Assembly: GCA_028879995.1 (NCBI GenBank)
Contig: GCA_028879995.1_4895.1
Length of the DNA: 52,495 nt
Strand: one strand, 5' to 3'
Source of the DNA: a phage
In this document: piece by piece, positions 3,338 through 50,122 of the stretch
Layout: the number at the start of each line of letters is the position of its first letter
Numbering within the stretch: the stretch's first letter is position 1
Notes under the pieces: generated by a model
Seen by the model: only the letters and a program-made list of their open reading frames with translations
What the model was told of the DNA's origin: nothing
The model's database searches: none
Program-made: the position numbers and the translations under genes

Positions 3338-3410
3338 TCAACCGCGCAACAGCCGGCCACGAGAGTCTGCAGGGCTCAGTGGATTTCGGATGGCTGGCTG
3401 CGCGGTTTGA
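3338..3410 (+). other. Long imperfect hairpin in the 5' leader of the scaffold/capsid transcript
   Basis: Arms tcaaCCGCGCAacagcc (3338-3354) and ggctggctGCGCGGtttga (3392-3410) pair over about 11 bp with bulges around a 35-nt loop. Confidence 0.35.
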
Positions 3411-3472
3411 CCAAAACCTGTTCAGAGCCCACTTGAGTGGATTGAGCCCCTCTCATATAGGATTGTAAAATT

Positions 3473-4186
3473 ATGGCACTTAAAACAGTTGTAACTGACC
3501 TTACCGAAGTTGATGAAGGCTTCCGTGGCCTGTATATCAAAGACGAAGCATCTGGTGCATTCCGTTTGGACGTTGAACCAGACGAAAAAACGCTGAAAGA
3601 ATTAGAAGACCTGCGCAAAGAAAAACAGCGTATGGAACAGCACACCAAAAAGCTTCTCGAAGAAAAGAAAAAAGAAGCTGAACGTGCTCGCCTGGCTGAA
3701 GAAGAACGCGCACGTCGTGAGCGTGATGTTGAATCTCTTGAGCGCTCTATCAAAGAGAAACATCAGGCTGAACTGGAACAGTATACTAATCGTCAGGCCC
3801 AGCTGCAAGCTCAGCTGGAAGCGCAAATGGTTGATAACCTGGCGCTGAACCTGGCTAACCAACTCTCTGACACCCCGGCACTTATTATGCCACACATCAA
3901 GGCCCGACTGCGCGCTCAGGAAATTGATGGTAAGTGGCGTACTACTGTCGTGGATGTTATGGGTAACCCGACTGCTACAACGCCAGATGAACTAGTGGAA
4001 CATATGCGCGCTGATAAGCAGTTTGCACCTCTTGTGCGTGGAACCAAGGCTGGCGGTGGCGGTGCCAACGGCGGCGGAGCTAATCCTGGTGGGAACGGCG
4101 GTGGCGAACAGCACACTTTCGGAGGCGGGGACGACCGCATAGCACGTGCTCGTGCTAAAATCCAAAACACACAATGGGGCAAATAA
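3473..4186 (+). CDS. Scaffolding protein
   Basis: 237 aa, highly charged coiled-coil-like E/K/R/Q-rich body, Gly-rich C-terminus; lies between portal and capsid gene. Confidence 0.6.
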   Translation: MALKTVVTDLTEVDEGFRGLYIKDEASGAFRLDVEPDEKTLKELEDLRKEKQRMEQHTKKLLEEKKKEAERARLAEEERARRERDVESLERSIKEKHQAELEQYTNRQAQLQAQLEAQMVDNLALNLANQLSDTPALIMPHIKARLRAQEIDGKWRTTVVDVMGNPTATTPDELVEHMRADKQFAPLVRGTKAGGGGANGGGANPGGNGGGEQHTFGGGDDRIARARAKIQNTQWGK

Positions 4187-4189
4187 TTT

Positions 4190-5167
4190 ATGTCACTGTA
4201 TATTTTTAACGAACAAGTACGTTCTACCGCCACCGAACTGGTTGACCAGGACGTACAGAAGTTTAACGAAGCTTCTGCAGGTACCCTTATTCTGGGTAAC
4301 CAGTACGTAATCGGTGATTACGTTGAGCAGGCAATGTGGCAGCTGGTTGACGGTATCGCTACCCGCCGTAATGCTTACGCTGGTACCAACAAAGTTGATG
4401 CGCAGACTCTGGGCCAGATTCTGGACCGCTCTGTTAAAATCGACGGCCGTGTTGGTCCTCTGAACATTACCGGTACTATGATGCGTCGCATCGGTGCAGG
4501 TGATACTGAACCAGCAGCTGTTGTTGCTGCACAGGCATCTGCTGCAATGTTCCAGGATTACCTGAACACCACTGCTGCATGTCTGGTAGCTGCTATCGGC
4601 GCAAACGCTGATGTTGTTCTGGACGTAACTTCAGGCTCCGGTGCTGCTGCAAACATCACCATGCAGAACCTGAACAAAGTCAACGCGAAGATGGGTGACC
4701 GTTCTCAGCAGATTCGTGCGTACATCATGCACTCTACTGCGTTCCACTCCCTCATCGACCAGGCTATCAACAACACAGAACACCTGTTCCAGATTGGTGA
4801 CCTGAACGTGTACAAAGACTTCCTGGGTCGTCGTTATGTCGTTTCCGACATCCCGGCTCTGGTTGATGGCGCCGGTGCTTCCGCTAAGTACCGCACTCTT
4901 GGTCTGACCCCGTCTGCTGCAATAGTTCAGGTCGGCGGCCTGTACGACATGGTTACCTCCGAGCAAACCGGTGGTGAAAACATCCTGCGTCAGATGCAGG
5001 GTGAATACGACTTCAACGTGTCGCTGAAAGGCTACAGCTGGGTCGGTCACAAAGCTGGTCAGTCTCCGACTGATGAAGACCTGGCTGCTCAGGCGTCCTG
5101 GTCTAAAGTTGCGACTTCCAACAAAGACACCGCTGGTGTTATGTTGCTGGCTAAGTCTGCAATCTAA
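4190..5167 (+). CDS. Major capsid protein
   Basis: 325 aa ORF directly after scaffold, followed by a strong intrinsic terminator (5190-5217). Confidence 0.7.
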   Translation: MSLYIFNEQVRSTATELVDQDVQKFNEASAGTLILGNQYVIGDYVEQAMWQLVDGIATRRNAYAGTNKVDAQTLGQILDRSVKIDGRVGPLNITGTMMRRIGAGDTEPAAVVAAQASAAMFQDYLNTTAACLVAAIGANADVVLDVTSGSGAAANITMQNLNKVNAKMGDRSQQIRAYIMHSTAFHSLIDQAINNTEHLFQIGDLNVYKDFLGRRYVVSDIPALVDGAGASAKYRTLGLTPSAAIVQVGGLYDMVTSEQTGGENILRQMQGEYDFNVSLKGYSWVGHKAGQSPTDEDLAAQASWSKVATSNKDTAGVMLLAKSAI

Positions 5168-44861: not shown

Positions 44862-45209
44862 TAAGCTTATTTTACAAACTGATTAATATTTAAACTATAA
44901 TTAAATATATGGGCTATAAGAGTATGATTTTATTACTCTTTTACTAACCATAATATATGGGCTCCTTATAAAAGATTAAGGGGGTAAAAAAGGGGGTACA
45001 AGTACCGGATAAAAGGGGGGATATATTTATTTATTATTATTATTATTATTATATATTATTAATTATATTAGAAGTAATAAAAACAGCTACTTAGAGGCGT
45101 CTATATGTATGATCCGGTTTATCTCTTTATTAATATCAGAACCGGATGAAAAAAATTTACGCCGGCGAAAAATAATAAAAAACCGGACTGATAAATAAAT
45201 CTGTAGACG
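44862..45209. repeat. AT-rich repeat-dense noncoding region (candidate replication origin)
   Basis: Two ATATATGGGCT copies, purine-rich AAGGGGGTA repeats (44977-45021), (TTA)n microsatellite near 45027-45051, inverted repeat ATCCGGTT/AACCGGAT (45112-45148); no ORF. Confidence 0.45.
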
Positions 45210-45238
45210 TTTACACTATAAAAAAGATGTGTTACAAT
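45210..45238 (+). promoter_or_regulatory. sigma70-like promoter TTTACA-N17-TACAAT
   Basis: Upstream of the Hjc-like resolvase gene. Confidence 0.5.
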
Positions 45239-45292
45239 ATTTATCAATGTTGCTGATTACCAAAACTTTGAATTGTATACGAGGCTGAATAA

Positions 45293-45724
45293 ATGGTTAA
45301 TATAAGACAGAAAGGACAGAACTTTGAGCGCAAAATGGCTAAGAAGTTCAATAGCTCGTTCGGATTAACTGTTGAGCGCAATCTTCAACAGTCTATTAAT
45401 GGCGGGGATGACTTGCTGGGTGTACCGTTTTTCAGTGTTGAACTGAAGAAGCACAACACCAAGTCTATCGGAACATGGTGGAGACAGTGTGCGGCGTCGG
45501 CAAAGGCTCAGAACAAGATGCCAGTGCTTATATACGAACTACCAAGAAAACAGCCTACCGTGGTGATGAATAAGGCTGATGTGATTGACTGTTTTCCAAG
45601 TGGCACGACTTTTAACGAGGCATCGAACCGCCTCTTTGTGGGTTTAGTAGAATTAACATGGGAACAATTTTGCCGGGTCTACAACTATTACGTTGCGCCC
45701 GGCACTCAATATCACGTCAATTAA
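45293..45724 (+). CDS. Hjc-like Holliday junction resolvase (PD-(D/E)xK)
   Basis: N-terminal KGQNFERKMAKKF then GGDDLLG...FSVELKK, matching archaeal Hjc-type motif order; RBS GAGG; promoter 45210-45238. Confidence 0.5.
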   Translation: MVNIRQKGQNFERKMAKKFNSSFGLTVERNLQQSINGGDDLLGVPFFSVELKKHNTKSIGTWWRQCAASAKAQNKMPVLIYELPRKQPTVVMNKADVIDCFPSGTTFNEASNRLFVGLVELTWEQFCRVYNYYVAPGTQYHVN

Positions 45725-45906
45725 TCTTGTTTCAGCTCGTCACAAATGACACGCTGATTTTTGGCAGGTATAATACCAAGATTTAGTAAGGTGTATGGAC
45801 TATCGGCGACGCATTGTTCAACGGTAGTCCATTCAGGTTTGGATTCAACAATTTCGTAATTACAGTCGTGAGCTGCAATACATGTTGACAGTATTAAGCC
45901 AATCAC
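45721..45906 (-). CDS. Hypothetical small protein
   Basis: 61 aa; GTG start overlapping upstream stop (GTGA); convergent with resolvase gene. Confidence 0.3.
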   Translation of the reverse strand: MIGLILSTCIAAHDCNYEIVESKPEWTTVEQCVADSPYTLLNLGIIPAKNQRVICDELKQD

Positions 45907-46082
45907 AAGTAATCTCCATCAACCAGAAACTCAAACAATTGGTTGTAAACGTTGCAACCTTTAGCGAAAGAGCTTTCAGCAGGTTTACCGTCGCGGACAA
46001 TCATCATATACTCACCGCCATGGATGTCCACCCAGTATTGCATGCCACCTTTGACCGGATTACGTTGCAGAAATTTAAACAT
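45903..46082 (-). CDS. Hypothetical small protein (59 aa, below the ORF-track cutoff)
   Basis: ATG 46082 with RBS AGGAGT, TAATG coupling; read by eye as MFKFLQRNPVKGG...FLVDGDYL. Confidence 0.3.
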   Translation of the reverse strand: MFKFLQRNPVKGGMQYWVDIHGGEYMMIVRDGKPAESSFAKGCNVYNQLFEFLVDGDYL

Positions 46083-46327
46083 TATTTACTCCTGATTCCA
46101 AGTTTATTCAATAACCAAATTGTCATGTCAACCCATGTTAACGGTACAGTTTTCGGGGGTTGATAATCCCAGCAGCTTGCAGTTCTTTGTATTTCTGCTT
46201 GGCGCCGCTCCGCTTCGCGTAATACCGCATCGTCAGAAGTGCCGGCAGAAAAAAGATCGGTAACACCAGATAAATCGCGTTGATTAACACGTCGAGCAAT
46301 GTCATATAAATCATCCTTAGAAAACAT
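46082..46327 (-). CDS. Hypothetical small protein
   Basis: 81 aa; ATG 46327. Confidence 0.35.
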   Translation of the reverse strand: MFSKDDLYDIARRVNQRDLSGVTDLFSAGTSDDAVLREAERRQAEIQRTASCWDYQPPKTVPLTWVDMTIWLLNKLGIRSK

Positions 46328-46503
46328 AAGCCAATACCATAAAAATTATCAGAAAGATCCCAACCAGCTTCCTCATAGCCCGACCTTCAGCATATGCAGG
46401 ATTCACAACAGAATACTCAACAACATGTTTACAGCGGACCATAAGGCCTCCACTTGTGGGTTAATTCAATCATGAGGACTTTTGGCAAATCCTCATTGTT
46501 GAA

Positions 46504-46704
46504 TCACTCCATCATTACCTGAACTATTATTATACACTCTTTATTGAAGCGGGTAAACACCTTTCCTCCATTTGTGCGTTTAGCCCCAGATTTTAGAGCT
46601 GACTGGCACCAGACATGCCACTCCTCAACTGTCAAGAATTTTTGTTCAGCTTTGGGTGGCAATCCATTGGCAAGGTCTACCGTAGTAAATTTGACTAGTG
46701 GCAT
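46504..46704 (-). CDS. Hypothetical small protein
   Basis: 66 aa; ATG 46704 overlapping upstream stop; contains a promoter-like site 46529-46557. Confidence 0.3.
   Translation of the reverse strand: MPLVKFTTVDLANGLPPKAEQKFLTVEEWHVWCQSALKSGAKRTNGGKVFTRFNKECIIIVQVMME
46529..46557 (-). promoter_or_regulatory. sigma70-like promoter (minus) TTTACC-N17-TATAAT inside small ORF 46504-46704
   Basis: Internal promoter-like site. Confidence 0.4.
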
Positions 46705-47093
46705 CACTTGACCTCAAATTTTGACTCGTCATATTCCGGATCAGTCACGTCCCGGGTAGCACAATTTTTGATTGCCTCCCAGTAACGTTGGGCATCATCA
46801 CCATCGACATAAACTGTCCAGTGGCCGTAACCACCTTCAAATCTGTCCCAGGCTTGTTCCCAGACTTTGCCATCTTCCAGCTTGTACCAAGTTGGACGAC
46901 TGTCAAACTCGCGGATTGGATGGTACCCCATCAAAGGATTCATCAGGTCAATAATGTCTTCCCGACTAATCTCCTGGTTCTCCCACAACACCGTCATGAA
47001 TTGCTCAAACTTGAAGGCGTTTGGCAGAACTTTGATGACTTCACCATCACGATATACGGTATAGGTGCCATCTTCGCATTTTGCACTGTACAT
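46704..47093 (-). CDS. Hypothetical acidic Trp-rich protein
   Basis: ATG 47093 preceded by conserved leader and hairpin cassette; 129 aa. Confidence 0.4.
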   Translation of the reverse strand: MYSAKCEDGTYTVYRDGEVIKVLPNAFKFEQFMTVLWENQEISREDIIDLMNPLMGYHPIREFDSRPTWYKLEDGKVWEQAWDRFEGGYGHWTVYVDGDDAQRYWEAIKNCATRDVTDPEYDESKFEVK

Positions 47094-47162
47094 GTTTCTC
47101 TCTCTTGTTGTGAATAATTTCAATCATGAACTATCACAATTTTGGATAGTTCATTGTTGAAA
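47094..47162 (-). promoter_or_regulatory. Conserved leader plus upstream hairpin cassette, copy A
   Basis: Perfect 8-bp hairpin GAACTATC/GATAGTTC (47128-47152) abutting a leader whose 16-nt core is identical at 47109-47124 and 47773-47788. Confidence 0.5.
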
Positions 47163-47336
47163 CTATGCTAACTTTGTTGCGATCTGAATTGTCAGCCTGA
47201 AATCTTCCATCAAGTTATCAAACTCTTTGGAACCACCAACAGCATCAGATATTTGATCTTTCACAATTTGGGCATTTGATTCCAGTAATTCAATCAGGTG
47301 CGCCAATTCGTCTTCAGTCAATTTCAGATCTTTCAT
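47163..47336 (-). CDS. Small acidic helical protein, paralog family member 3 (MKDLKLT...)
   Basis: ATG 47336 (ATGA overlap with upstream stop); 57 aa; N-terminus MKDLKLTEDE shared with two other small ORFs. Confidence 0.4.
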   Translation of the reverse strand: MKDLKLTEDELAHLIELLESNAQIVKDQISDAVGGSKEFDNLMEDFRLTIQIATKLA

Positions 47337-47591
47337 AATGCATCCACCCAAGCCATAACTTTTGCCAGTCTTACAACGTCTTCATGGTCTCGCTCGCCAT
47401 CAGAAAATTCGCTGGCGATGATACCCATAATTGACGCCAGATTCATGTTGATGATGTATGAGTGTTCCCGCACTTCATCAATTCCTGAATCTATCACCAA
47501 TTCCGCAAATTCCTGCGAACCTTCATCCCATTCAGCCCAATACTGCTCAGCATAAAAGTCCAGTTCTTTTTTTCATCTCAATATCAGTCAT
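47333..47591 (-). pseudogene. Small acidic protein gene interrupted at an A7 homopolymer (frameshift)
   Basis: ATG 47591 with RBS GAGGAG gives MTDIEMKK then stop; with A6 instead of A7 (plus 47567-47573) the frame stays open to TGA 47333-47335. Confidence 0.35.
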
Positions 47592-47596
47592 TTTGA

Positions 47597-47755
47597 TTAC
47601 TCCTCAGAACCTGAAAATTTGTCGTCAATGGCTTCAACAATATAATCAAGAGTTGAAGTGTGAGAACTATCAGAAAAAGTGCCCATCTTCTCTAACTCAA
47701 TCATCATATCCCGCAAGGCCATCGCCTGGTCTTTGGTCAGTTTGATTTTAAGCAT
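47597..47755 (-). CDS. Small acidic helical protein, paralog family member 2 (MLKIKLT...)
   Basis: ATG 47755 preceded by conserved leader/hairpin cassette; 52 aa. Confidence 0.4.
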   Translation of the reverse strand: MLKIKLTKDQAMALRDMMIELEKMGTFSDSSHTSTLDYIVEAIDDKFSGSEE

Positions 47756-47819
47756 GTTTCTCTCCTGTTGATTGTGAATAATTTCAATTGATGGCACTAC
47801 TTGAGTGCCATCTCAAAAA
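47756..47819 (-). promoter_or_regulatory. Conserved leader plus upstream hairpin cassette, copy B
   Basis: Perfect 9-bp hairpin GATGGCACT/AGTGCCATC (47790-47812) abutting the same conserved leader. Confidence 0.5.
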
Positions 47820-48386
47820 TTACTCAGTTTCTTGTTCTTCAATTTCAGGTTTTTCTTCAGTCTTAGGTTTTTCGCCTGTTACTGATTTGCCCTCAGTCAC
47901 TTTACCAGATTTTACATCATTACGGTAATAGGACATATAGGATTGGACAACACGTTTTGCCCTAATATCATCCGCTTCCATCCCACAGGCTTTCATGGCA
48001 TCAGCCAGCGCCAATTTGGAATCTTCTTTGTCCATCAAATTGTAATCCTTGAATACTGCATAGCAGGTATCTTTGGTTGACGGACCGGATGAAGTTTTGC
48101 GGGTGCCACCTGCAGATGCACGTGATGCCGCAACTTTGACCTCTTCAACTTCCAGTTGGTTAAGCTCATCAAACAAGGCTTTCACCAGCACTTCTTTTGA
48201 GTCTTTGACACTTACAGAACTTTCATCATTAAGGGACTTGATCATCTTAATGATTTGGTTATTGGCAAAGTACTGCAGGCTATCCATCTGCACTACAATA
48301 GTCCCAAGACTTTCAGTAGTCAGACCAGATTTTACAGACTCGACAGAAAAGGCGGAAGTCAGGTAAACGTAGTTAGTAGCAGTCAT
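47820..48386 (-). CDS. Hypothetical protein
   Basis: 188 aa, Lys/Glu-rich C-terminal tail; ATG 48386. Confidence 0.45.
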   Translation of the reverse strand: MTATNYVYLTSAFSVESVKSGLTTESLGTIVVQMDSLQYFANNQIIKMIKSLNDESSVSVKDSKEVLVKALFDELNQLEVEEVKVAASRASAGGTRKTSSGPSTKDTCYAVFKDYNLMDKEDSKLALADAMKACGMEADDIRAKRVVQSYMSYYRNDVKSGKVTEGKSVTGEKPKTEEKPEIEEQETE

Positions 48387-48481
48387 TTTGATGTATCCTC
48401 GTCAATAGAATTTTGGTAAGCGCCAATCCCTGGCAAGTAAGTCCAAACATGACAACTTTTGTCAAGCTGTCATGATTGAAA

Positions 48482-48661
48482 TCACTTCAATTTGTTAAGT
48501 ATTTTGGTCAATAGCTCAACTCTTTCTTCCTGGTCAGTAGGGTCAAAGTTTTCAATTGACTCCTTCCAGTCCTCCAGCAGTTCCTTTTCATTAAATATTG
48601 AAATGTCAAGAAATTCAACCAATAACTCAACTTCTTTTTTAGTCAATTTCAAATCTTTCAT
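48482..48661 (-). CDS. Small acidic helical protein, paralog family member 1 (MKDLKLT..., 59 aa, below the ORF-track cutoff)
   Basis: ATG 48661 with RBS AGAGGG; read by eye as MKDLKLTKKEVELLVEFLDISIFNEKELLEDWKESIENFDPTDQEERVELLTKILNKLK. Confidence 0.4.
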   Translation of the reverse strand: MKDLKLTKKEVELLVEFLDISIFNEKELLEDWKESIENFDPTDQEERVELLTKILNKLK

Positions 48662-48675
48662 CTTGTATGACCCTC

Positions 48676-48825
48676 TTACCCTTGATATTTGACTACTTGC
48701 GACTGGATGAAATCAACACAATCTTCCACGTCCATTGATTCAAAATCTGGAACTGGTCCATTATTAATGTTGACACACCATAGCCCTTCATTACAATCAT
48801 ACCAAAGCGTATAGTTGTCTTTCAT
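48676..48825 (-). CDS. Hypothetical small protein (MKDNYTLWYDCNEG...)
   Basis: ATG 48825 with RBS AGGAGT; 49 aa with four Cys; first gene of the leftward small-gene cluster. Confidence 0.3.
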   Translation of the reverse strand: MKDNYTLWYDCNEGLWCVNINNGPVPDFESMDVEDCVDFIQSQVVKYQG

Positions 48826-49042
48826 AATAGTTACTCCTGCTATTAGTTTCCAGGCGTGGCTACTGCTTCCAATAGCCACTAGTTGAAACTATTACCAGCG
48901 TTACTATCAACAAGAAACATGTTACCAAATTGTTAAAGAGCGGTCTGGTACTATTCGACCAGGTAAAGTTGATGTTTGCGCATCTTGACGACACGCGCCA
49001 GACAAGACGCTTGACACATTCATCATTCGTCTTGATGTAATA

Positions 49043-49071
49043 ATTATAGGCCAGTCAATCAATGTTGTACA
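49043..49071 (-). promoter_or_regulatory. sigma70-like promoter (minus) TGTACA-N17-TATAAT for the leftward small-gene cluster
   Basis: Plus-strand attata 49043-49048 and tgtaca 49066-49071. Confidence 0.45.
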
Positions 49072-49182
49072 TAAAAGAATTGCAAGTTTATGCAAGTTTT
49101 TAGAAATGATAATCACTTGCGATTGAGAGTGGTTCTCGTATGCAATTGATATAGTTTCGCATGTAATTACTCACTTCAAAAT

Positions 49183-49240
49183 GGTCGGCAGGGGTTATAA
49201 TCACATAGGGGTGCCACTTAAAGGAGCCGGCGAAATTATT
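49183..49240. repeat. Approx. 58-nt GC-rich repeat unit R1
   Basis: Shares with R2 the pattern GGT.CGGC.GGGG-TAAT-C.CA-GGGGTGC.AC.T-AGGAGCC.GC.AAATT.TTTAT. Confidence 0.5.
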
Positions 49241-49358
49241 TATAAAAATATAATTTCAATCTGAATTATAGACGCTTTGTGTTATAACGGCCGAAGTAGT
49301 TCATACGGTAATTGTATCAATCGCAATAGTTACCAAAGTAATCATTTCAATTGAAATA

Positions 49359-49416
49359 GGTGCGGCGGGGGGTAATTTCGCAGGGGTGCTACCTGCCAGG
49401 AGCCAGCAAAATTTTT
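49359..49416. repeat. Approx. 58-nt GC-rich repeat unit R2
   Basis: Second copy about 176 bp downstream of R1, same orientation. Confidence 0.5.
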
Positions 49417-49566
49417 TATTTTTTGGTATTTTCTCCTTATCAGGACCAATCATCATCAGAGTAATACGGCAGGAGCTAACCTTTTGCTTAACACAATAAT
49501 AAGTGAAGCCCCTCTAAAAATTTTTTATATTTTTCGGAAATTGTGTAGACACTCACTAAAAAGTGG

Positions 49567-49595
49567 TGTACTTTCTCTCCTCCACGCGCTATCAT
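49567..49595 (+). promoter_or_regulatory. sigma70-like promoter TGTACT-N17-TATCAT for the rightward DHFR/kinase operon
   Basis: About 40 nt upstream of the first plus-strand gene. Confidence 0.4.
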
Positions 49596-49645
49596 TAATG
49601 TGAATCATCAAACGGCCTCACGGTCTCCTACTTGTGGGTAACATT

Positions 49646-50122
49646 ATGAAAATTGTTCAATTAGAGCCATATCCGCCTCAATTGGCTATCGTTTGTAGCG
49701 AAAAAGAGCACGAAGAGCTCCAAAAACTGATGGATTTGCCTGATTTTGGCAACTGGAATGACCGGGAAACGCGTAATGCATCTACTTTTACGTTCACTCG
49801 CGTTAACTATCCGTACCTGTTAATTGTCGTCGAACTGTATCACCCGGACGACCTGAAGTACAACACCATTTCCCACGAAGGCATTCACGTAATGTCATCG
49901 CTGATGAACTATGTAGGGCTTAAATACGACCCAGAAAACGATGAATGGTACGCATATCAGCATGATTTCATCGTAAATGCCATTTGTAAGGCCCATGACG
50001 AGTATATAGAGCGTCAAAAAACGCCAAAAACTAAGCCAAAAATCGAAACAGGTAACCATCCTGCAATACTGCCACAAGACGTAATGAACTCGCTTTTGAC
50101 TGACACTACTGGGGACTTTTAG
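49646..50122 (+). CDS. Hypothetical protein with HExxH motif (possible small zinc metallopeptidase-like protein)
   Basis: ATG 49646 (tool start GTG 49634); single HEGIH motif; first gene after plus promoter 49567-49595. Confidence 0.3.
   Translation: MKIVQLEPYPPQLAIVCSEKEHEELQKLMDLPDFGNWNDRETRNASTFTFTRVNYPYLLIVVELYHPDDLKYNTISHEGIHVMSSLMNYVGLKYDPENDEWYAYQHDFIVNAICKAHDEYIERQKTPKTKPKIETGNHPAILPQDVMNSLLTDTTGDF

Follow-up and report, generated by a model that had tools for sequence, protein, structure and literature searches.

A candidate accessory operon with recurrent RNA hairpins in the predicted terminal repeat of a Rosemountvirus

Introduction

What are the many small genes crowded beside the resolvase gene of a Rosemountvirus for, and how are they read? 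The question is raised by a phage contig of 52,495 nucleotides (GCA_028879995.1_4895.1; hereafter the window, meaning the whole stretch analysed), in which a compact array of minus-strand genes is flanked on one side by a gene for a RusA-like resolvase (45293-45724, plus strand) and on the other by a non-coding gap of about 800 bp, followed by rightward genes. Positions 45089-49700 are those of Salmonella phage BP63 (KM366099 / NC_031250, genus Rosemountvirus) at essentially 100% identity, and some 60 records of related Salmonella and Escherichia phages match the same positions at 60-97%. The array corresponds to BP63 gp02-gp13, 12 annotated minus-strand genes that are all 'hypothetical' except gp05 ('membrane protein'), joined by a 13th open reading frame (ORF) of 81 amino acids (aa), here called ORF81 (46082-46327, minus strand), which overlaps gp04 and is unannotated in BP63.

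We read this region, with a probability of roughly 0.6, as a leftward-running accessory operon within a long direct terminal repeat, and propose that it works as follows. Host sigma-70 RNA polymerase would start at a conserved promoter near 49071-49043 and cross a structured leader of ~210 nt, in which a hairpin would mask the first ribosome-binding site. The product would be one polycistronic mRNA of 13 small ORFs arranged in five translationally coupled modules, with four bipartite RNA hairpins, most likely processing or stabilising sites, separating the modules. The encoded proteins, small, mostly acidic and apparently non-enzymatic, would most likely bind host components soon after DNA entry, in takeover or counter-defence, and the ORF81/gp04 locus would encode a growth-inhibitory product. 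Evolution of the operon itself would proceed through permutation of entire modules at the hairpins that bound them, and through recombination of gp08 with gp12. The early timing, the single transcript, cleavage by RNase III and the takeover or anti-defence role are all inferred here.

Gene content and coding capacity

A first-pass annotation of the window, made from the letters alone, had set these ORFs between the resolvase gene and a divergent non-coding region, at positions that agree with BP63 gp02-gp13. Its outline of a minus-strand cluster of small genes holds, but its estimate of about ten ORFs of 49-188 aa was low, as there are 13, of 41-188 aa. Hairpins, described below, bound five modules, given here in the direction of the operon (all on the minus strand). 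The first comprises gp13 (48676-48825; 49 aa, isoelectric point (pI) 4.05), the first gene of the operon, and gp12 (48482-48661; 59 aa, pI 4.6); the second is gp11 alone (47820-48386; 188 aa, pI 5.0). The third module joins gp10 (47597-47755; 52 aa, pI 4.6), gp09 (47333-47591; 85 aa in the BP63 record) and gp08 (47163-47336; 57 aa, pI 4.4), and the fourth joins gp07 (46704-47093; 129 aa, net charge -12, pI 4.5) to gp06 (46504-46704; 66 aa, pI 9.1). The last opens with gp05 (46317-46442; 41 aa, with a hydrophobic C-terminal segment), continues with ORF81 and with gp04 (46138-46305; 55 aa, pI 10.2), which lies entirely within ORF81 in the +1 frame, and closes with gp03 (45903-46082; 59 aa) and gp02 (45721-45906; 61 aa), the last gene of the operon and convergent with RusA. 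The products had been called mostly acidic, which is true of nine of the 13 (pI 4.0-5.6); of the rest, ORF81 is close to neutral, and gp04, gp05 and gp06 have a basic pI of 9.1-10.2.

Nor are the genes chained throughout by overlapping start and stop codons, as had been supposed. Five of the 11 junctions do overlap (gp09/gp08, ATGA; gp07/gp06, TGATG; gp05/ORF81, 11 nt; ORF81/gp03, TAATG; gp03/gp02, GTGA), but two are gaps of 5 and 14 nt and four are spacers of 61-95 nt. The outer limit once set at 48879 is the end of the longest GTG-started ORF; gp13 itself likely starts at ATG 48825, with AGGAG 8 nt upstream, and the extra 54 nt beyond that ATG fall in a conserved leader hairpin.

Ratios of non-synonymous to synonymous substitution (dN/dS), taken against Loughboroughvirus ZCSE2, Erwinia phage SOI901 and Rosemountvirus birk, were 0.04-0.25 for the ORFs and 0.53 for gp05; the neighbouring RusA resolvase, at 0.14, is comparable. 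Among individual genes, the ratio was 0.06 for gp13 and 0.22 for gp08 (both against ZCSE2), 0.14 for gp06 and 0.06 for gp02. Exceptions were gp10, which is too conserved to judge, and gp03 and gp09, which against ZCSE2 are too diverged, with synonymous sites saturated. Numerous ORFs of similar size occur in alternative frames on both strands, and one might suppose from this that the cluster is nothing but reading frames left open by chance in AT-rich, non-coding terminal DNA. That explanation, already contradicted by dN/dS values of 0.04-0.25 for most of the ORFs, must also contend with coupled start/stop overlaps, ribosome-binding sequences and orthologs recognisable down to 33-70% identity, and we give it next to no credence. 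The cluster ORFs are real genes under purifying selection.

One gene is broken in the window. At 47569-47575 (minus-strand GATGAAAAAAAGAAC) a run of seven A replaces the six of the BP63 record, which frameshifts gp09 and reduces it to a remnant of 55 aa; across this stretch the listed records of other matching phages are likewise one base shorter than the window. The extra A probably reflects an error of sequencing or assembly, or else a mutation private to this sequence.

The predicted terminal repeat

Sequence comparison predicts that the whole cluster lies inside a direct terminal repeat of 4241 bp (45164-49404), which would hold RusA, all of the small genes and the leftward control region. 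In the related phage fHy-Eco03 a direct terminal repeat of 3699 bp was identified by PhageTerm (PMC8145870; annotated in MW602648) and takes in the resolvase gene together with nine small genes read leftward. In the vB_SalM_Sz record (57,020 bp) the same genes occur at either end, and the gene offsets give a calculated terminal redundancy of 4263 bp. The repeat boundaries of these two phages align to the same window bases, 45164 (GGCGAAAAA...) and 49404 (...CCAGGAGCC), and in phage S144 restriction maps independently locate one physical end of the genome in the gap that separates the small genes of 'cluster E' from those read rightward (PMC7432712); the 4241-bp repeat at 45164-49404 is therefore predicted from the aligned boundaries of two relatives and the mapped end of a third phage. 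The fHy-Eco03 paper itself remarks that the BP63 sequence is without the repeat (PMC8145870). A circular assembly of the window with identical ends was looked for and not found.

The predicted repeat also differs in composition, with 40.9% G+C as against 46.4% in the rest of the genome; low G+C at the same locus was likewise reported for S144 (PMC7432712). Both boundaries carry an A-run, TTT and then (C)GCY|GGC, inverted relative to each other (45149-45167, plus strand; 49401-49417, minus strand). Such inversion would be expected of ends cut on opposite strands, and the motifs may be terminase cutting signals. A third, similar motif at ~49223-49240 (minus strand) opens a direct repeat unit of ~50 nt within the control region.

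Promoter and leader

A candidate leftward promoter, TGTACA-17 nt-TATAAT, was located at 49043-49071 (minus strand; 10/12 in a consensus scan). In a six-phage alignment of the DNA upstream of gp13, TGTACA, the 17-nt spacing and (T/C)AT(A/T)AT are kept, while the sequence of the spacer varies freely. An RNA polymerase gene has been reported absent in related phages.

The last 84 nt before gp13 (48826-48909, minus strand) are predicted to form a leader hairpin in which the Shine-Dalgarno sequence of gp13 is base-paired (-37.6 kcal/mol, z -6.4). SE13, ZCSE2, fHy-Eco03 and SOI901 are predicted to share this fold, with pair-preserving base changes, which suggests translational control or processing at this site. 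An ORF of 64 aa at 48922-49116 (minus strand), annotated as a gene in KE24, was considered and rejected: it overlaps the promoter, and conservation ends just past the -35 hexamer. The stretch is probably regulatory DNA and not a gene.

A second promoter-like sequence, TTTACA-N17-TACAAT, occurs on the plus strand at 45210-45238, just inside the left boundary of the predicted repeat and facing RusA; it is conserved in vB_SalM_Sz and fHy-Eco03. With it, the repeat would contain a second transcription unit opposed to the first, an arrangement shared with T5/BF23.

Intergenic hairpins

All four spacers of 61-95 nt fold into bipartite hairpins, in which a lower stem rich in A/U (8-11 bp) leads through a small internal loop to an upper one (9-11 bp). 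On the minus strand these are H1 (48434-48488; -25.2 kcal/mol, z -4.4), H2 (47775-47826; -23.6 kcal/mol, z -5.8), H3 (47111-47169; -22.7 kcal/mol, z -5.6) and H4 (46457-46511; -25.2 kcal/mol, z -4.4). All 12 spacers of the ZCSE2, SOI901 and fHy-Eco03 operons fold alike, which brings the count to 16 of 16 spacers in four phages, and the upper stems are unrelated in sequence.

The structure is supported by covariation. RNAalifold applied to the 16 copies returned 16 pairs, 14 of them with pair-keeping changes on both sides; 89.3% of alignment cells were paired as compared with 66.4% in shuffles (none of 500 as high) and 29-52% when partners were slid, and the covariation score was 0.631 as against 0.226 in shuffles. 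G-U cells outnumbered A-C cells by 26 to 5, an excess that favours sense-strand RNA over a DNA palindrome, the cells being non-independent and any p-value indicative only. Run over the whole 52.5-kb window, a covariance model built from the alignment matched the minus strand at the four operon hairpins and nowhere else (H1, 48.7 bits; H2, 38.9; H3, 57.2; H4, 51.4), and it found four or five copies in each of four genomes left out of its building. Rfam yielded no family in the region, its best matches being at chance level.

What might such hairpins do? All of them provide ~20 bp of imperfect double-stranded RNA in the sense transcript, as an RNase III site would. The early RNase III sites of T7, reportedly described by Dunn and Studier, are said to be hairpins with an upper and a lower stem and an internal loop, placed between cistrons of an operon that is read by the host polymerase and encodes small acidic proteins. 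The shape and the intercistronic position are alike, although the stems here are shorter and the internal loops mostly small and symmetric. By this analogy the hairpins are most likely processing or stabilising sites. They begin in the last codons of the upstream gene and have A/U-rich, AUUGAAAUUAUU-like 3' flanks, features that could suit attenuators or weak terminators that grade expression or protect 3' ends without endonucleolytic processing; in T4-like phages, promoter early stem-loops (PeSLs) have been described as composite terminator/promoter elements. However, none of the four is followed by a U-tract and a terminator scan flagged none, so they do not look like intrinsic terminators, and the conserved second, lower stem extends the helix to 20-22 bp with an internal loop, longer than is typical of one. 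We regard attenuation as unlikely, though of some weight, and prefer processing or stabilisation.

The likeness to PeSLs extends to position, in that repeated stem-loop cassettes stand between small variable genes at points of exchange (PMC2839356, PMC4122927), and the stem-loops here likewise lie between small variable ORFs at module-exchange points. They differ in having no sigma-70 promoter with the stem-loop; the structure and a downstream ribosome-binding leader are conserved instead. A promoter after each hairpin, as the PeSL model would have it, was rejected, as only a TTGAAA hexamer resembling a -35 element was found, with no -10 before the ATG.

Exchange of modules

Among BP63, SE13, ZCSE2, fHy-Eco03, SOI901 and KE24 the five modules are permuted, replaced or dropped. 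In fHy-Eco03 the order, in BP63 numbering, is 13, 08, 07 (C-terminal half only), 06, 11, 05, ORF81, 03, 02. In SOI901 the gp07 module is preceded by an unrelated gene of ~100 aa and followed by gp11; that ~100-aa gene is an addition ahead of gp05 in SE13 and ZCSE2; and KE24 has gp13-gp12 replaced by a different, unrelated gene of 100 aa (KE24 4737-5039). The same leader, ATTGAAATTATTCACAA...GAGAGAAAC-ATG, stands before different genes in different phages. A further difference lies on the other side of the resolvase: KE24 and birk carry a gene for an Ant-like anti-repressor (birk 1813-2319) upstream of RusA, in a stretch that matches the predicted repeat, and the window is without it.

Horizontal transfer has been raised as an idea for 'cluster E' of S144 (PMC7432712), and the genes could be acquired 'moron' cargo, expressed at various times and with no concerted early role. 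Variable gene content, shuffled module order and a G+C content of 41% as against 46% for the rest of the genome (the same in S144) would all fit such an origin. Against it, the position, promoter, leader and hairpins are the same across two genera and an Erwinia phage, gp13, gp11, gp06, gp05 and ORF81 form a conserved core, and low G+C combined with a strand skew that is uniform is consistent with co-transcription of the genes. We consider uncoordinated cargo improbable and a co-transcribed accessory operon the better account.

Three genes, gp08, gp12 and gp10, had been proposed to form a paralog family, and the first two do: gp08 and gp12 are paralogs. Their local alignment scored z 7.2 (0 of 300 shuffles as good), hhalign matched the N-terminal 30 columns at E 1e-5 with a probability of 82%, and the 5' ends of the two genes form a DNA repeat of 63 nt with 73% identity. 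KE24 has an identical gp12 copy (KE24 3408-3587) in tandem with gp08 and immediately upstream of it. The place of gp12 is taken in birk and vB_SalM_Sz by a variant of 53-54% identity beginning MKVLELS, so the MKDLKLT common to BP63 gp08 and gp12 may partly reflect recent recombination. Of the pair, gp08 is kept across the phage group. The third candidate, gp10, was rejected, with pairwise z of 1.3-1.9 and hhalign probabilities of 0.8% and 0.3% against the two profiles (<1%), and it has no demonstrable paralogy to either.

The ORF81/gp04 locus

Experimental evidence for an effect on the host comes from a published toxicity screen of fHy-Eco03 genes in E. coli, in which eight clones were orthologous to genes of the cluster and only g05 was strongly toxic (PMC8145870). 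That clone gave a ratio of 0.003 by next-generation sequencing (NGS), a plating fraction of 0.164 and growth arrest under pBAD induction (PMC8145870). ORF81 is the ortholog of the toxic Gp05, with 67.9% identity to fHy-Eco03 and full-length tblastn matches in 62 records. Annotations of the locus are divided: the BP63 RefSeq record has only gp04, and fHy-Eco03, ZCSE2 and SE13 have only the 81-aa frame.

Neither frame is interrupted in any of the seven lineages compared. Within the overlap, gp04 in its own frame has a dN/dS of 0.16-0.86 (0.16-0.55 against the window) and looks selected, whereas the 81-aa frame, at 1.2-2.2, looks unselected by this measure. Over the 18 codons that follow the overlap, variable columns of the 81-aa frame number 5, 2 and 12 at codon positions 1, 2 and 3, with dN far below dS, and synonymous divergence is several-fold lower inside the overlap than outside. 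A ribosome-binding sequence of its own (AAGGA or GAGGAG) precedes gp04, and in every lineage the stop codon of ORF81 shares bases with the start of gp03 (TAATG or ATGA). From these patterns of substitution and signals, ORF81 and gp04 are probably both translated. The published toxic clone carries both frames, so its toxicity is attributable to the locus and could be due to either product; gp04, with a hydrophobic helix and a basic tail, would be of a peptide type that is often toxic when over-expressed.

Protein function and an early role

That none of the proteins resembles a recognised one, as the first-pass annotation had it, agrees with every family, sequence and fold search. Pfam, NCBIfam and PADLOC gave no match for any cluster protein. 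PHROGs gave only families of unknown function (gp13 with phrog_5461 at E 1.4e-10, for example), most of them apparently confined to this phage group, aside from the 'membrane protein' family phrog_10979 for gp05. Homolog searches with gp11, gp08 and gp07 returned relatives from this phage group only (26 homologs for gp11), and an exhaustive HMMER search with the gp11 profile recovered seven cluster representatives among 1.84 billion proteins, with no informative domains. The AlphaFold2 model of gp11 (mean predicted local distance difference test, pLDDT, 72.8) has two folded domains, beyond which the protein has an acidic tail; a fold search of the PDB gave a best E above 1, and a fold search with gp07 likewise gave no significant neighbour. 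No resemblance to a DNA-mimic anti-restriction fold of the Ocr or ArdA type was found. Sequence searches of the PDB with gp11, ORF81 and gp08 were empty, and the RecG resemblance reported from Phyre2 for fHy-Eco03 Gp05 was not reproduced.

The idea of an early host-takeover or anti-defence region draws on the location in a predicted repeat, the conserved promoter, AT-richness, small genes without families and one toxic ortholog clone. Several observations weigh against it. No protein matches a known defence or anti-defence family or a known fold in the searches just described, and among the data examined nothing ties any cluster gene to a defence system. In the fHy-Eco03 screen, seven of the eight clones (g03, g04, g06, g08, g09, g10 and g11) were not clearly toxic (PMC8145870); these include the orthologs of gp13 (g11), gp03 (g04), gp02 (g03) and gp08 (g10; NGS ratio 1.5, plating fraction 0.46), and general host shut-off is unlikely for most of the genes on this account. 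The terminal-repeat placement is itself one that we infer by homology with two relatives. Sigma-70 promoters are not clearly enriched in the overall scan (20 sites against 14.1 +/- 3.9 expected), so the promoter argument rests on conservation, and a literature search for Rosemountvirus or Loughboroughvirus found no transcriptome paper. Lastly, the gp11 ortholog fHy-Eco03 gp07 was detected by liquid chromatography-tandem mass spectrometry (LC-MS/MS) in virion preparations, so gp11 could be a particle or injected protein and not a purely early cytoplasmic one.

This last point can be generalised: some of the products, gp11 especially, may be virion-associated or injected rather than newly made early, and the annotation of fHy-Eco03 gp07 as LC-MS/MS-detected in phage particles speaks for it. 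The same study, however, assigned 48 of 81 predicted proteins to the particle, the RusA resolvase and neighbours from nucleotide metabolism among them, which suggests carry-over of abundant non-structural proteins. We give this reading little chance. The early accessory role is retained as the proposed one, with takeover or counter-defence as a plausible, partly supported purpose.

Comparison with known systems

Direct orthologs of the cluster have been described at the same locus, as fHy-Eco03 g03-g11 (PMC8145870) and as ORF71-80 of S144 'cluster E' (PMC7432712), in both cases as small genes of unknown function. Gene content and order in BP63 differ from both, and the BP63 record is without ORF81 as well as the repeat. 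The existence of the locus is thus already in the literature. The two papers make no mention of hairpins, a gp08/gp12 pair, an overlapping frame at the toxic locus or a conserved promoter and leader; new here are the placement of the BP63 genes in a repeat, the conserved promoter and leader, the covarying hairpins confined to the operon, the paralog pair and the dual-frame toxic locus.

In T5 and BF23, pre-early genes sit in the duplicated first-step-transfer terminal region. Like that region, the predicted repeat would place small, mostly unknown genes in a long direct terminal repeat, with two opposed units read by host polymerase (a prediction here) and a long non-coding inner repeat border. 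The repeat is shorter, however, at 4.2 kb as against about 10 kb, the phage is a myovirus where T5 and BF23 are siphoviruses, and nothing homologous to A1, A2 or dmp was found. The host-takeover module of SPO1, reportedly described by Stewart and colleagues in 1998, is said to consist of small early genes in the terminal redundancy. In phage K, transcripts of the terminal repeat appear within 2 min (PMC9241854). The likeness to SPO1 and phage K lies in small-gene arrays in the terminal redundancy, but those phages have Gram-positive hosts and much larger repeats, and there is no sequence relationship.

In position, promoter type and gene style the operon appears to fit the terminal-repeat pattern of T5 and phage K. 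By that analogy it would be of an ordinary kind, a terminal-repeat early accessory operon with new genes. A more ambitious account can be offered only tentatively, the odds being against all of its parts holding together: that the hairpins are undescribed, portable RNA processing cassettes that double as recombination joints of a terminal-repeat pre-early operon, that ORF81/gp04 is genuinely dual-coding, and that the acidic proteins include inhibitors of new fold, gp07 for example.

Significance

Rosemountviruses and Loughboroughviruses are in development for biocontrol of Salmonella and E. coli, and about a dozen of their genes are unexplained. Placement in a terminal repeat under a host-type promoter would single out the genes of this cluster as those most likely to act first on the infected cell, and they are candidate new inhibitors of host targets or defences. 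The BP63 annotation is corrected by the addition of a missing 81-aa ortholog of a proven toxic gene. The hairpin family, for its part, offers a compact and testable case of how phage accessory genes are organised and reshuffled.

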